This document shows, piece by piece, positions 6,181-30,092 of a stretch of DNA of 64,000 nt. Numbering within the stretch: the stretch's first letter is position 1; each line of letters starts with the position of its first letter. Source of the DNA: Desulfurococcales archaeon (GTDB lineage Archaea; Thermoproteota; Thermoprotei_A; Sulfolobales; NBVN01); assembly GCA_015521325.1 (NCBI GenBank), contig WAOK01000001.1:9782-73781 (forward strand). Direction: 5' to 3'. The notes beneath the pieces are model-generated. The model made no database searches. It saw only the letters and a list, made by a program, of their open reading frames with translations, and was not told the origin of the DNA. The translations under genes and the position numbers were made by a program.

Positions 6181-6651
6181 ATGGCGGTAGATAAGGCTGT
6201 GAGGGAGGTCCTTCGTGTGGTTGAAGAAGTCGAGAACATAGATGACCTACTATGCAGGCTCAAAGCACCCAATACAAAGGTGGTTCTAGAGAGGCTCGAT
6301 TTACCGGAGAGGTGCATCGCTGTCCTTGTGCCAGCGAGACTCTTCACTGGCCCAAGGCACCTCAGACTCACCGCCTACCTCACAGAAGTCGCGTGGTCCG
6401 AGGGCAGTGCCATAGCTAGGAAAAAGGAGGTCGAGTTCATGCTCACGTACCTTGCCACTAGGCAAATAAGGGAGGCCTTGAATGTGTTCAGGCCCGAGGG
6501 CGTTGATGCTGTTCTATATATATGGTGTGTCGGCGACGTTGCCGACGTCTCTGAAATCAGCTGGTGCCTTCCTCCGCCGGAGCCCGATCATGAAGCCGAG
6601 CTTGAGGCGATTGAGAGAACGGCTCTCTTCTGGGCAGAGCAGCACAGATGA
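6181..6651 (+). CDS. cgi121: KEOPS complex subunit Cgi121 (tentative)
   Basis: 156 aa. ARKKEVEFMLTYLATRQIREALNVF resembles the Cgi121 motif (..MEILvrasGqrQI.eAi..). Size fits. Confidence 0.5.
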   Translation: MAVDKAVREVLRVVEEVENIDDLLCRLKAPNTKVVLERLDLPERCIAVLVPARLFTGPRHLRLTAYLTEVAWSEGSAIARKKEVEFMLTYLATRQIREALNVFRPEGVDAVLYIWCVGDVADVSEISWCLPPPEPDHEAELEAIERTALFWAEQHR

Positions 6652-6714
6652 GTCTCACGTACCACACTCCTTAAATCCCTGTTTCGAGAACTCGTTAATG
6701 GCGGGGGACGCGCC

Positions 6715-6813
6715 ATGTCGTTCGAAGAGGAAGAGTGGTGGGAGGAGGAAGAAGAGGAAGAAGAGTGGTGGGAAGAGGAGGAGTGGTGGGAAGAAGAGGA
6801 AGAAGAATGGTGA
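6715..6813 (+). CDS. candidate micro-ORF, 32 aa Glu/Trp peptide MSFEEEEWWEEEEEEEEWWEEEEWWEEEEEEW (alternative reading: 57-aa Lys/Arg-rich ORF 6698..6871)
   Basis: Own translation. The ATG and TGA bracket the repeat exactly. TTAAAT at 6671-6676 lies upstream. Coding status and frame are unresolved. Confidence 0.3.
   Translation: MSFEEEEWWEEEEEEEEWWEEEEWWEEEEEEW
6721..6813. repeat. purine-rich GAR triplet tract punctuated by GAGTGGTGGGA (x3) and terminal GAATGGTGA
   Basis: Read directly from sequence lines 6721-6813. Confidence 0.8.
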
Positions 6814-7048
6814 CACCTCTCCGAAACCAGCACTATGTTTTTACTTTACTAATTATTTACCAGCTACCTAACCCAAACAGATGGTAGGGGGGACACGTCC
6901 TCAACCCCAATATTTAAGGGTCAGGGAGATGTTTCTCTTCATCGCTGACGCTCTAAGCCGTCACCACTCATCATTCACTACCGTGCTCGATACGTAGGTA
7001 ATGAACGTTATTATGGCTGACCACCTCATCAACTCCTAGGGTTGGGGA

Positions 7049-8896
7049 ATGGTGAGGGTAGCGGTAGTCGATCACGACCTCTGCAAGCCCCATAGATGCG
7101 CTAAGGAGTGCGTGAGGTTCTGCCCAGTGAACAGGGCAAAGAGGAACAGGGCCATGGGCCTGTACGCCATATACCTCTCGGAGGAGCACGGTGGTAAGGC
7201 AATAATCAATGAGTCCCTCTGCGTCGGCTGCGGCATCTGTGTTAAGAAATGCCCCTTCAACGCCATATACGTCGTTAATCTTCCGGACGAACTCGAGAAG
7301 ATGGTCGTGCACAGATACGGGGTCAACGCCTTCAAGCTCTACGGTCTTCCCCTACCCGGCCGTGACTACGTCCTCGGCATAATAGGGAAGAACGGTACCG
7401 GAAAGACCACCTCAGTCAGGATACTGGCGGGCGAGATAGTCCCTAACCTGGGCAGGGTCGGTGAGAAGGTTACGTGGGATGATGTGCTCAGGCACTTCAG
7501 GGGGACGGAGTTCTATAACTACTTCAAGGGAATAGTGGACAAGAAGTACAGAGTCGTTCACAAGATACAGAACATCGACATAATACGGAGGAGGGTTAAG
7601 GGGACTGTCGATCAGGTACTCCAGAGGATCGATGAAAGGGGTATGCTGAACGAGGTTAGGAAGTACGTGGACCTCGACAGCGCGTGGGGCAAGAAGATCT
7701 CTCACCTCAGCGGCGGCGAGCTACAGAAGCTCGCCATAGCCGCGGCCCTGCTCAGGCAGGCGGACATATACTTCTTCGACGAGCCCTCAAGCTATCTCGA
7801 TGTGAGGGAGAGGCTCGCCATAGCTAGGGCAATAAGGGAGCTCCCGCCGAAGAACGCGTATGTCGTCGTCGTGGAGCATGACCTCGCTATGCTTGACTAC
7901 ACATCCGATAAGGTGGCGATCGTCTACGGTGAGCCGGGCGTGTACGGCATATTTTCTAAGCCGTACGCGGTTGGGGCCGGGATAAACCACTACCTCCTAG
8001 GGTACCTACCTGCCGAGAACATGGTGATTAGGAAGGAGAAGATAGTGTTCCGAGTCCATGCGGAGGCGCCGGAGAGGGAGCTGGAGACAAAGATCATCTA
8101 CCTTACATGGAGTGACTTAAGAAAGAGGCTCAATGGCTTCGAGCTTAGCGTGGAAGGAGGTGAGGTCTACCAGGGCGAAGTAATAGGTATCCTGGGCCCC
8201 AACGCCATAGGTAAGACAACGTTCATACGCATGCTCGCAGGCGAGCTCAAGCCCGATGAGGGGGAGGTACCGACCGAGGCCTACAGAATAAGCTACAAGC
8301 CACAGTACATATCCCCCAAGAACTACCCCTGGACCACTGTCGAGGAAGCGCTCAACGAGATCACGAAGGAGGGCATAGCGGCGACAGACTGGTTCAGGGT
8401 GGACGTGATAAGGAGACTGCGGCTCCATAAGCTGGGCGACAGGGAGATCGCCCAGCTGAGTGGTGGAGAGCTACAGAAGTTCGCCATAGCTGTGGCCCTC
8501 GCCGCTGACGCGGACATATACCTCCTCGACGAGCCCTCCGCCTACATAGACGTGGAGGACAGGTTCACCGTGATGAGGGCGATAAAGAGGGTTGCGACGG
8601 TGAGGAAGGTGGCTATGTTCGTCGTTGACCACGACCTAAACGTCATCGACTACGTAGCGAACAGGGTAATGGTGTTTAGGGGCGTCCCTGGGAGGGAAGG
8701 GCACGCCTTGGCACCCACTGACCTAAGGACAGGCATGAACACCTTCCTCAAGGACGTGGGGGTCACGTTCCGCAGGGACCTCAAGACAGGGAGGCCCAGA
8801 GTTAATCGTCCGGGCTCCTACCTCGACAGGAAGCAGAAAGCGATCGGGGAGTACTACTACGTCCCGAGGGCTGAGGAAGTTGCTGAGGAGGAGTGA
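7049..8896 (+). CDS. abce1: ABCE1 / RNase L inhibitor-type ribosome recycling ATPase
   Basis: N-terminal double 4Fe-4S motifs (CKPHRCAKECVRFCP, CVGCGICVKKCP) followed by two ABC cassettes (GKNGTGKTT..LSGGELQ; GPNAIGKTT..LSGGELQ). Confidence 0.95.
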   Translation: MVRVAVVDHDLCKPHRCAKECVRFCPVNRAKRNRAMGLYAIYLSEEHGGKAIINESLCVGCGICVKKCPFNAIYVVNLPDELEKMVVHRYGVNAFKLYGLPLPGRDYVLGIIGKNGTGKTTSVRILAGEIVPNLGRVGEKVTWDDVLRHFRGTEFYNYFKGIVDKKYRVVHKIQNIDIIRRRVKGTVDQVLQRIDERGMLNEVRKYVDLDSAWGKKISHLSGGELQKLAIAAALLRQADIYFFDEPSSYLDVRERLAIARAIRELPPKNAYVVVVEHDLAMLDYTSDKVAIVYGEPGVYGIFSKPYAVGAGINHYLLGYLPAENMVIRKEKIVFRVHAEAPERELETKIIYLTWSDLRKRLNGFELSVEGGEVYQGEVIGILGPNAIGKTTFIRMLAGELKPDEGEVPTEAYRISYKPQYISPKNYPWTTVEEALNEITKEGIAATDWFRVDVIRRLRLHKLGDREIAQLSGGELQKFAIAVALAADADIYLLDEPSAYIDVEDRFTVMRAIKRVATVRKVAMFVVDHDLNVIDYVANRVMVFRGVPGREGHALAPTDLRTGMNTFLKDVGVTFRRDLKTGRPRVNRPGSYLDRKQKAIGEYYYVPRAEEVAEEE

Positions 8897-28387: not shown

Positions 28388-29185
28388 ATGGCTGATGACC
28401 CGTGTGGGGAGCTGAGGAGGCTGCTGCGACTCAGCAGGGGATTGAGGCTGAGGAAGCGGCTGGGTCAGCACATCATGAGGGAGTGCAGGATAGGAACGGA
28501 TTTTATGAGGGTAATTAGGGGACTCGGCCCGAGGGCCGTGGTCGAGGTCGGGGCGGGTCCTGGGGCACTCACACTATTTCTTGTGAGATCCTGTGGGAGG
28601 GTCTTGTCAATAGAGATAGACAGTTCCTTCGTTCCTTACCTAGCGCCGTTAGTCGAGAAGTACTTACTAGAGGTGGTGTTGGGAGACGCCATCGATTTAG
28701 TCCCGTCGATTCGGGGTGTGGACGTGCTTGCTTCCAACACCCCATACAACATCTCCTCGCAGCTCCTTGTAGCGTTCGTGAAGAACCCCTCCCTAAGAGC
28801 TGCCGTGATGACTCTGCAGAAGGACTTGGTTGACAGGCTGCTCGCCCCTCCAGGCTCAAAGCGCTACGGGAGGATCGCTGCTTTCGTAAGGAGTTTCGCC
28901 TTCATCGAGAGGGTGGCTGACTACCCGCCCAGTTACTTCATACCCGAGCCCGAGGTCTGGTCCAGCCTTGTGGTTCTGAAGAAGGTTGTTGATTGGGGTG
29001 AGGGATGGGCGCGCTATGAGGACATGCTCAGGTGTCTCTTCAATCAGAGAAGGAGGATGCTGAGGACTGTGGCGAGGAGGTGTGGATTGATTGTGCCGAC
29101 CGATTTGCTGAATAAAAGGGTTTATGAGCTCGGGCCCGAGGAGTTCGTGAGGATCTACAGGCTTAATTACTCAGGCGGCCCGTAA
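28388..29185 (+). CDS. rsmA: 16S rRNA (adenine-N6,N6)-dimethyltransferase KsgA/Dim1
   Basis: LGQHIM, VVEVGAGPGALT (SAM site), SNTPYNISSQLL motifs. Confidence 0.85.
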   Translation: MADDPCGELRRLLRLSRGLRLRKRLGQHIMRECRIGTDFMRVIRGLGPRAVVEVGAGPGALTLFLVRSCGRVLSIEIDSSFVPYLAPLVEKYLLEVVLGDAIDLVPSIRGVDVLASNTPYNISSQLLVAFVKNPSLRAAVMTLQKDLVDRLLAPPGSKRYGRIAAFVRSFAFIERVADYPPSYFIPEPEVWSSLVVLKKVVDWGEGWARYEDMLRCLFNQRRRMLRTVARRCGLIVPTDLLNKRVYELGPEEFVRIYRLNYSGGP

Positions 29186-29433
29186 CTCCTCTGCCTTCTT
29201 ATCATCTCCTTAAGTTCCTCTATCCGCTTGCTCACGCTCTCCAGTTCCTCCTTAAGCTCCTCCAGCTCTGCCTCCAGCTCCTTCCTGTACTCCTCCAACA
29301 TCCTCAGCTCATCCTCTGGGCTATACCCCCACGGCGGAGGGTACTGAGGCGGCGGGTACCATCCCCAGTAATACGGCGGCGGATATGGGTAGAAAACGCC
29401 CCTCCTTCTCCACCTATACCCCCACCAACTCAT
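29167..29433 (-). CDS. DUF5320-like small protein: W/Y/P/R-rich N-terminus plus E/K/L coiled-coil C-terminus
   Basis: 88 aa from Met24 of ORF 29167..29502: MSWWGYRWRRRGVFYPYPPPYYWGWYPPPQYPPPWGYSPEDELRMLEEYRKELEAELEELKEELESVSKRIEELKEMI. The ATG lies 2 nt after the upstream stop. Confidence 0.6.
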   Translation of the reverse strand: MSWWGYRWRRRGVFYPYPPPYYWGWYPPPQYPPPWGYSPEDELRMLEEYRKELEAELEELKEELESVSKRIEELKEMIRRQRSYGPPE

Positions 29434-29435
29434 GG

Positions 29436-29714
29436 TCACCACCCGTACCATGGCGTGGGGTACCAGGTACCTGAGTAGTAGGGGGCGTAGTAGCTGTACC
29501 ACCTACCCCAGTACGTCGGCCACCAGTACCTGCCCCACACTACCCATCCAGGGGCACCAAAGACCCTCCAGCACGCTCCGCGCCCTCCAAAGTACCAGCC
29601 AGGCCTCTCCCACGGCGGTAGGAACGACCAGGGCCCGTTCCCTGGCCACGGACCTCTCCATCCTCTTCTCCATCCCCAGCCGAGTCCCCACCACGGCGGC
29701 ATGGGTATCCCCAA
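29436..29714 (-). CDS. extreme Trp-rich small protein (19 W of 92 aa; W/G/R/P/Y low complexity)
   Basis: MGIPMPPWWGLGWGWRRGWRGPWPGNGPW...TWYPTPWYGW. Composition continues into the next ORF. The competing same-strand frame 29503..29724 is not excluded. Confidence 0.5.
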   Translation of the reverse strand: MGIPMPPWWGLGWGWRRGWRGPWPGNGPWSFLPPWERPGWYFGGRGACWRVFGAPGWVVWGRYWWPTYWGRWYSYYAPYYSGTWYPTPWYGW

Positions 29715-29750: not shown

Positions 29751-30092
29751 TCAGCTCTCCACAGAGCCTGTGACGTATATGGGCCTTCTGTTAACTATGG
29801 CGTCAACGAGTTTACGCCTCCCACTCTCAAGAAGCCTCCAGAGAGTCCCTCTCGAGATACGCATTAGCTCAGCTGCCTCGCCCTGCCGCTTCCCCTCCAG
29901 GTAAACCAGCCTGAGGGCCTCGACCTCGTCCGGGGTTAAGACTACGGAGTCCGGGGGTACCTCTCCATCTTCATCGAGAGGAAACGGCATGAACACCGTT
30001 GGTGTGTGAGACCATGATAGCCAGCGGGGCTTCGGTGGCCTGCCCTTACCTCTCCATCTTCGCCGCCAGGGCCTCCAATGCACCAGAGTCAC
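29751..30092 (-). CDS. DUF134 (UPF0251) family HTH protein with R/W-rich N-terminal tail
   Basis: GRPPKPRWLSWSHTPTVFMPFP...VVLTPDEVEALRLVYLEGKRQGEAAELMRISRGTLWRLLESGRRKLVDAIV matches the DUF134 pattern (RPRKPR..F.P...L..dE.EAlRL.d.egl.qeeAAe.MgvSR.T..r.l..AR.Kva.AL). Confidence 0.75.
   Translation of the reverse strand: MTLVHWRPWRRRWRGKGRPPKPRWLSWSHTPTVFMPFPLDEDGEVPPDSVVLTPDEVEALRLVYLEGKRQGEAAELMRISRGTLWRLLESGRRKLVDAIVNRRPIYVTGSVES

Follow-up and report, generated by a model that had tools for sequence, protein, structure and literature searches.

The DNA considered here is a stretch of 64,000 nucleotides (the window) from contig WAOK01000001.1 of a Desulfurococcales archaeon, and the element in question is a short purine-rich tract that lies between the genes cgi121 and abce1. 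The tract is built from GAR and TGG triplets, and one of its open reading frames (ORFs) encodes a micro-protein made up almost entirely of glutamate and tryptophan (the Glu/Trp or EW micro-protein). This ORF is very probably a real protein-coding gene, and it belongs to an apparently undescribed family of Glu/Trp micro-proteins encoded, as a rule, beside abce1 in many hyperthermophilic archaea. The features of the locus are the following, with distances given in nucleotides (nt).

6181-6651, forward strand: cgi121, encoding a KEOPS subunit; NCBIfam Cgi121 match below threshold (E 4.5e-8; 33.3 bits, cutoff 40)
Between the cgi121 stop codon (6649-6651) and the abce1 start (7049), forward strand: purine-rich GAR/TGG tract, read from the sequence
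6671-6676, forward strand: TATA-like TTAAAT within a near-invariant block (6660-6714), putative promoter element
6702-6707, forward strand: Shine-Dalgarno-like (SD-like) GGGGGA, 8-13 nt before ATG 6715 and conserved in close relatives
6715-6813, forward strand: EW micro-protein gene, stop codon TGA at 6811-6813, assigned by frame conservation
6838-6842, forward strand: T5 run 25 nt past the stop codon, the sole conserved element of the 3' flank and a likely archaeal terminator
7049-8896, forward strand: abce1, encoding the ribosome-recycling ATPase ABCE1 (RLI); named homologues and ABCE1 matches in the PDB

An earlier sequence-only reading of the window had drawn attention to the tract, and the positions it gave for cgi121, abce1, TTAAAT, and two candidate ATG codons (6698 and 6715) were all correct when the window was read again. 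Within the tract GAGTGGTGGGA is found three times, at 6733, 6763, and 6781, and a terminal GAATGGTGA occupies 6805-6813. Three frames had been put forward. Frame (a) runs from ATG 6715 to the TGA at 6811-6813 and encodes, as had been reported, the peptide MSFEEEEWWEEEEEEEEWWEEEEWWEEEEEEW of 32 residues (MSF at the N-terminus, with 22 Glu and 7 Trp in total), with its start and stop codons bracketing the repeat. The expected mass of this peptide is ~4.4 kDa, and it contains no tryptic sites. Frame (b), from ATG 6698 to 6871, does give the Lys/Arg-rich peptide described for it, but its ATG is internal to a longer open frame (6482-6871). Frame (c) is the Ser/His ORF of the minus strand (6588-6833), which was located as described and begins with GTG at 6833. 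These three frames are open, as had been stated, but the tract is actually open from stop to stop in all six. Since a sequence composed only of GAR and TGG cannot hold a stop codon, the openness of the frames alone is uninformative.

The repeat itself is no chance feature. It is reported as a repeat by Tandem Repeats Finder, and a pattern in which two WW pairs enclose a segment with acidic residues next to each pair occurs twice in the window sequence versus zero times in 100 shuffles. The tract is also the sole Glu/aromatic-rich open frame within the 64-kb window, where it is present as a single copy. A search of the intergenic region against Rfam returned no match covering the tract; one hit, to SIB_RNA, was set aside as noise (E 0.34, 21 bits versus a gathering score of 56).

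The sequence-only reading had suggested a comparison with related genomes to determine which frame keeps its start and stop codons and tolerates only synonymous changes. A scan based on Cgi121, using one genome per species, found one relative, the Desulfurococcales metagenome-assembled genome (MAG) L001, whose Cgi121 is 77% identical to that of the window. Additionally, an exact look-up of the peptide found the 32-residue sequence as a called gene on 18 public contigs, and loci L002-L007 from this look-up were among those used. Four distinct DNA versions of the locus were compared, namely those of the window, L001, L004, and L006. Frame (a) is the sole frame in which both start and stop are kept in all four versions. 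In L004 and L006 the encoded peptide is identical to that of the window in spite of 6 and 8 GAA/GAG switches, respectively, and all nine variable sites among the 32-residue versions are found at codon position 3 (GAA/GAG) and none at a G or A position of the codon. The only change in length among the four versions is in L001, where one additional in-frame GAG results in a peptide of 33 residues. The 55 nt on the 5' side of ATG 6715 are almost invariant in the relatives; the 3' flank diverges fast, the T5 run excepted.

The other proteins encoded at the locus provide a measure of how strongly the peptide is held. In the same comparisons the micro-protein either stays the same or gains a single Glu, at identities of 70-77% for Cgi121, 90-94% for the ThiS-like protein, and 97-98.5% for ABCE1. 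Because the peptide is kept while these proteins diverge, the constraint on it is estimated to be at least equal to that on ABCE1, with synonymous sites near saturation. These comparisons demonstrate, at the level of aligned DNA, purifying selection on the peptide with synonymous sites drifting freely, and the Glu/Trp reading of frame (a) is thereby supported.

The family to which the window gene belongs was collected by scanning metagenome contigs for the pattern GARx4-TGGTGG-GARx4. At least 120 contigs matched, at least 114 of these have a tiny ORF designed like that of the window (18-42 residues), and at least 78 distinct peptides are present among the matches listed, that of the window included. 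The composition was analyzed for 77 distinct peptides of 23-42 residues, signals anchored on the start codon were counted in 105 non-identical listed loci, and all six frames were examined in 101 non-identical listed loci. The family design consists of Met, 1-4 bulky residues (mostly F, L, V, I, or Y), and Glu runs of mostly 3-8 residues that are split by W or WW. The punctuation is sometimes L or F, and among the listed peptides the spacers are never longer than 11 residues. Glu accounts for ~68% and Trp for 19% of the residues in the 77 peptides, the net charge is -15 to -31, and the C-terminus is EEW in 63, EEE in 11, and EEF in 2.

A start codon for frame (a) is present in 101 of the 101 loci (ATG in 90), whereas the other five frames have starts in only 28-63 of them and three of these frames contain internal stops in 9-15 loci. 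When the nearest pairs of the same length were compared, the differences at codon positions 1, 2, and 3 numbered 13, 22, and 157, respectively. GAA and GAG are used almost equally in the family (1078 versus 948), so the RNA sequence itself is not constrained and selection acts on the peptide. A divergent subfamily is found in L133 (3278-3400 of the locus, contig WYEB01000001.1), L199, L222, and L230. Its members carry ...SFEEDEFWEEEEEWWEEEEEEEELWGEEEEEEEWWEEEE, end in EEEE rather than W, are located away from abce1, and apparently start either at TTG or, with an N-terminal extension that is basic (MSQKKGNNRGVRSL...), at a more upstream position.

The same data bear on the other two frames and on the absence of any gene. 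According to the reading of frame (b), a leaderless mRNA beginning at ATG 6698 encodes a Lys/Arg-rich peptide of 57 residues that resembles a very basic ribosomal peptide. The frame is open and TTAAAT lies ~25 nt upstream of this ATG. In L001, however, a 1-nt deletion (G5 to G4, just 5' of ATG 6715) means that ATG 6698 is no longer in frame and that the Lys/Arg reading has lost every start, and in L006 the ATG is replaced by GTG. Every substitution in the tract would be a K/R replacement, the part of the frame on the 3' side of the tract is unconserved, and the peptide has no Pfam matches. Across the family, the +1 frame has a start in just 63 of the 101 loci and an internal stop in 11. An L41e-like, very basic peptide of ribosomal type was considered for this frame and dropped, as both a conserved start and a profile match failed. 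The probability that frame (b) is the gene is therefore close to nil.

A Ser/His protein encoded by frame (c) on the minus strand, or no gene at all, is extremely improbable. The third codon positions of frame (c) coincide with those of frame (a), so the observed changes are synonymous in frame (c) too and substitutions alone cannot exclude it. The ends of the frame are more telling, since L006 has no start upstream of the Ser/His run, the N- and C-terminal ends move with the indels in L001 and L004, and starts are found in only 28-37 of the 101 family loci. If there were no gene, the tract would be either a neutral purine microsatellite, as the sequence-only reading had allowed, or an element acting at the level of RNA, and it is indeed a tandem repeat. 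A neutral tract would be expected to change at the G and A positions and to vary out of frame in length, but none of the nine variable sites is of that kind and the sole length change is one in-frame GAG. An RNA element would fix the choice between A and G, but this choice drifts freely.

The expression signals around frame (a) were examined in the 105 start-anchored loci. The fraction of G climbs to 0.48-0.68 between positions -14 and -8 relative to the start codon, and an SD-like 4-mer within -16 to -4 is found in 68 of the loci versus 11-14 in control windows. TATA-like hexamers are confined to positions upstream of -37. Past the stop codon, a run of four or more T is found in 93 of the loci at a median distance of 22 nt. 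A leader of 17 nt had been offered as one option for frame (a), and it fits both the position of GGGGGA before ATG 6715 and the enrichment of this signal throughout the family. This anatomy is suggestive of a monocistronic gene whose short leader contains an SD element, and we infer from these signals that 6715-6813 would be independently transcribed and translated, with its own TATA box, SD leader, and oligo-T terminator. In two relatives a hairpin with T5 is found from ~8 nt past the EW stop codon, CCGAGGT-N4-ACCTCGG in L001 (2246-2277) and CCGAGG-N6-CCTCGG in L006. This hairpin is degraded in the lineage of the window, in which the T5 run alone remains.

The genes that accompany the family were determined next to each listed EW ORF. 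Within 3.5 kb on either side, a gene of the ABCE1 cluster is found at 91 of 114 listed loci and a Cgi121 gene at 80 of 114. The called abce1 product in related loci carries precomputed Pfam matches to Fer4_RLI and two ABC_tran domains. When the analysis was restricted to the 47 listed loci with at least 1.5 kb on each side, 43 of the 47 had an ABCE1-cluster gene no more than 1 kb from the EW gene (in L159 it is a different ABC ATPase), and 36 of the 47 had a Cgi121 homologue at such a distance. In 35 of the 43 ABCE1-adjacent loci abce1 is downstream and co-oriented, with a median gap of 165 nt, and in 8 it is divergent. The order of the block is thermosome (on the opposite strand), S17e, ThiS/Urm1, sometimes a phosphoribosyltransferase, Cgi121, EW, sometimes a Zn_ribbon_RPB9-like gene, ABCE1, and FBPase. 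In one clade the EW gene alone is inverted inside the conserved block, which is an argument for its being an independent unit.

Other elements are located between the EW gene and abce1. In several clades (L130 1885-2169; also L172, L212, L132, L185, and others) a protein of ~94 residues is encoded there whose N-terminal part is a Zn_ribbon_RPB9 domain (E 1.3e-13) and whose C-terminal tail is acidic. In the window, a gene resembling a C/D box small RNA lies antisense at 6919-6978 (minus strand) and consists of a C box (ATGATGA), a 12-nt guide GTGGTGACGGCT, a D' box (TAGA), a C' box (CGATGA), a 12-nt guide AGAAACATCTCC, and a D box (CTGA). Its Rfam matches are only sub-threshold ones to archaeal sR28, sR5, sR30, and sR17. 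L001-L005 and L007 carry it with hardly any change, and L006 lacks it at this position. A conserved TATA-like TTATTAT is found ~40 nt upstream of the abce1 ATG.

The position of the ORF raises the possibility that it acts in cis. It has been reported that, on bacterial and eukaryotic ribosomes, translation of nascent chains with a D/E-rich N-terminus aborts within the first ~30 residues, and that in bacteria the destabilisation caused by acidic chains is counteracted by bulky residues near the peptidyl-transferase centre (PMC9718836; bioRxiv 10.1101/2021.02.02.429294). The function could then lie in translating the poly-Glu chain, which would be extremely prone to such destabilisation, with the peptide as a by-product. 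Completion or abortion of the chain would modulate read-through of the T run into abce1 and would report ribosome stability, the level of cations or polyamines, or the supply of charged tRNA, for which tRNA-Glu and tRNA-Trp only would matter. This literature makes the composition a plausible sensor (PMC9718836; bioRxiv 10.1101/2021.02.02.429294), and codon identity would likewise be conserved. The ORF is directly upstream of abce1 on the same strand in the 35 co-oriented loci with their short median gap, and the hairpin and T5 of L001 and L006 could be masked by a terminating ribosome. Other observations speak against the sensor as a general account. One clade has inverted nothing but this ORF, which is divergent from abce1 in 8 of the 43 loci, and several lineages hold it far from abce1. 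In addition, the hairpin is lost in the window lineage, the antisense C/D box small RNA-like gene and the conserved TTATTAT intervene before abce1 in the window, and archaeal attenuation of this type is not established. A leader or attenuator of the TrpL/MgtL type was rejected on the grounds of the 8 divergent loci, the T run past the stop codon in 93 of 105 loci, and the elements between the two genes in the window. We consider a cis-acting sensor unlikely.

The family is conserved, as judged from gene and protein sequences, across deep lineages of Desulfurococcales-type Thermoprotei, Hyperthermus butylicus included. The ABCE1 proteins of EW loci fall into 20 groups at 75% identity, with pairwise differences of up to 54%, and this spread equals their distance from the ABCE1 of Saccharolobus or Ignicoccus. 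Named relatives are a Desulfurococcaceae MAG (identical to L139), Ignisphaera sp. (84-85%), and MAGs labelled 'Sulfolobales archaeon' and 'Thermoprotei archaeon'. A cultured species, Hyperthermus butylicus DSM 5456, has a member of 36 residues, MKWILLEEEEEWWEEEEEEEWWEEEEEEEEWEEEEW, in its complete genome, located between a cgi121-like gene and abce1 (L248 2742-2852, at ~461.3 kb of CP000493.1). It has GGTGA 9-13 nt upstream of its ATG and is absent from the called genes. A different arrangement is found in Saccharolobus shibatae (CP077717.1), where the block is rearranged to ABCE1, FBPase, S17e, Urm1, a HerA-like gene, and the thermosome, without Cgi121 or EW there. Genes of a Fusellovirus (SSV)-type provirus (F-112, SSV1_D-63, F93, and VirArc_Nuclease) lie directly upstream of abce1 in this genome (L249 369-3209).

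With regard to function, we propose that the peptide is a trans-acting polyanion, for the most part disordered. Pockets on a basic surface that binds nucleic acid would take up the spaced Trp residues and the free C-terminal Trp, so that the peptide may mimic RNA, DNA, or an acidic tail, or may escort a very basic protein. The N-terminal poly-Glu chain is probably also kept translatable by its bulky N-terminal residue and by a Trp after every 3-8 Glu. The translation and ribosome-recycling apparatus is the most likely arena, and ABCE1 is the prime candidate partner because of the position of the gene. Action in trans rather than as a cis element is favored because the constraint is at the level of the peptide, because the gene has its own putative promoter and terminator, and because its orientation is free. 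The adjacency to abce1 is found in both orientations (43 of 47 loci, compared with 36 of 47 for Cgi121), and in one clade the EW gene alone is inverted. Taken as a whole, the statement that this is a real gene whose product acts through such a disordered binding mechanism has, in our estimate, an even chance of being correct.

Several observations weigh against this proposal. The EW gene is located away from abce1 in L205/L141, L233, L226, L133, and L229, and no EW ORF was found within 4 kb of abce1 in Saccharolobus shibatae or Ignicoccus islandicus. Much of the adjacency to abce1 can be inherited synteny of the entire block. The pattern of Trp and bulky residues could be entirely due to translatability, in which case it says nothing definite on binding. 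AlphaFold2, when run on the single sequence, returned a confident single helix, which is typical of poly-Glu, and this predicted helix neither supports nor excludes disorder. An amphipathic-helix model was dropped in spite of this prediction, since the helical amphipathicity of the peptides does not go beyond that of shuffled controls.

A narrower version of the trans-acting proposal assigns the peptide to ABCE1 itself. The EW peptide would be a dedicated trans factor of ribosome recycling or ABCE1 biogenesis whose acidic tail and C-terminal Trp dock on ABCE1 (or its Fe-S domain) or on the stalk/factor-binding site, which would make it an archaeal functional counterpart of Lto1 and eIF3j, the acidic helpers of ABCE1 in eukaryotes that depend on Trp. 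Making the peptide would at the same time report how stable the ribosomes are, since these are destabilised by poly-Glu nascent chains. In this complete form the idea is unlikely.

The extreme charge density (-15 to -31 over 23-42 residues) and the repetitive unit structure could also point to bulk chemistry, with the peptide serving as a buffer or carrier for Mg2+, K+, Fe, or polyamines, or to a precursor of a smaller Glu/Trp product. Hyperthermophiles are rich in polyamines, which would suit such a role. On the other hand, the neighbours are housekeeping genes and no modifying enzyme, protease, or transporter is conserved alongside, there is one copy per locus and one in the window, and the strict termini (Met plus a bulky residue, and ...EEW) would be needless for a buffer. 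A precursor of a ribosomally synthesized and post-translationally modified peptide, or of a cofactor, was rejected since no conserved genes for modification, processing, or export are found among the recurrent neighbours. Bulk or precursor roles are thus quite unlikely.

The sequence-only reading had noted that the EW peptide is the charge mirror of Arg/Trp-rich proteins encoded at 29.2-29.7 kb and had speculated that it might be their partner or antidote. The charges are complementary and both are rich in Trp. One of these ORFs (29167-29502, minus strand) matches DUF5320 (E 5.8e-6) and adjoins a DUF134 gene (29751-30092, minus strand, E 1.4e-17); the second (29436-29714, minus strand) overlaps it, encodes 92 residues rich in W, G, R, and Y, and has no Pfam match. 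These ORFs are 22 kb from the EW gene, and among the annotated recurrent clusters no such neighbour is found at the 114 listed EW loci. The link is left without support and we regard it as highly improbable.

The family was looked for in protein collections as well. A phmmer search with the peptide against 1.84 billion representatives returned no matches, a result that is uninformative as such short peptides are missing from the collection. Pfam returned no families for the EW peptides at E values up to 10, in a setting where HMMER heavily discounts this composition, and searches of NCBIfam and of PDB sequences gave no match to them. The match of the peptide to itself retains just 29 bits in HMMER after a bias correction of ~50 bits. 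The correction for composition, together with the omission of short products from large collections, makes families of this kind systematically invisible. A word-indexed protein search with a natural member of 42 residues yielded 6 candidates that share words with it, none of which scored, and found no longer protein carrying an EW module and no fusion. A loose DNA pattern applied to viral contigs matched other Trp/Glu-rich repeats, many of them interrupted by stop codons, and none was a bracketed EW ORF. A literature search by sequence strings and phrases found no account of such peptides in the library covered.

If the peptide is made, it is among the simplest conserved proteins known, with a two-letter alphabet (Glu and Trp) and about 27 residues, and purifying selection has held it across lineages whose ABCE1 proteins differ by half. 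It also exposes a blind spot of annotation, as the family is missed by databases based on HMMER, is too short for large collections, and is uncalled in H. butylicus. The position beside abce1 suggests that a small factor may be missing from the current picture of ribosome recycling or ABCE1 maturation in archaea. To our knowledge, the destabilisation of ribosomes by acidic chains has not been studied in archaea, and the composition of the family provides a natural test of this effect on archaeal ribosomes and of its rescue by bulky residues.

Several known systems resemble the EW peptides in part. Acidic and aromatic elements of this sort work by docking on basic surfaces, many of which bind nucleic acid. 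DSS1/Sem1 is a small acidic eukaryotic protein present in the proteasome lid and in BRCA2 and TREX-2 complexes. Like the form proposed for the EW peptides it is small and disordered, its acidic stretches with conserved Trp/Phe enter basic pockets of its partners, and it is reported to mimic DNA. It differs from the archaeal EW peptides in its length of 70-90 residues (18-42 in the EW peptides) and in its ordinary complexity in place of an essentially two-letter alphabet, and it has a Pfam profile, DSS1_SEM1. This profile gave no match to the EW peptides at E values up to 10, where the self-score of the peptide is only 29 bits. The tails of E. coli SSB (...DDDIPF) and T7 gp2.5 (...DDEDF) are likewise poly-acidic with a terminal aromatic residue, and they vie with nucleic acid for a basic cleft and recruit partners. 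These are tails of larger proteins, whereas the EW peptide is a free-standing gene product. The acidic C-terminal tail of aP1 and the acidic Trp motif of eIF3j/Hcr1 are reported to contact ABCE1 or to aid recycling. Both peptides are acidic and in part aromatic or hydrophobic, and their site of action is the binding region of a translation GTPase or ABCE1. They have no sequence similarity to the EW peptides, and the aP1 tails end in GLxxLFG and not in EEW.

The terminal Trp also recalls the assembly of Fe-S proteins in eukaryotes. It has been reported that the machinery for iron-sulfur assembly in the cytosol (CIA) recognizes a C-terminal targeting signal, [LIM]-[DES]-[WF]-COO-, and Lto1, an adaptor for Fe-S insertion into Rli1/ABCE1, requires its terminal Trp for this maturation (PMC4523923; PMC10245660). 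The EW peptides share a free C-terminal Trp after an acidic residue, and the CIA signal is tied to ABCE1. Of the 77 listed peptides, 65 end in W or F, with E as the preceding residue; the residue at -2, however, is E and not L, I, or M, so that two of the three positions agree with the tripeptide and the third fails, and membership was rejected. Moreover, Lto1 and Yae1 are deca-GX3 proteins without similarity to the EW peptides, and the targeting complex (Cia1-Cia2-Met18) is described for eukaryotes. D/E-rich leaders of the MgtL type are also short ORFs with acidic first ~30 codons in which bulky residues modulate whether translation continues (PMC9718836; bioRxiv 10.1101/2021.02.02.429294). 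These are cis-acting operon leaders, whereas the EW gene comes with a putative terminator of its own, lies inverted in one clade, and shows conservation of its peptide. The EW peptides are not members of any of these families, and the likenesses are functional analogies only; as analogies, they suggest ABCE1 and translation as the first place to look.

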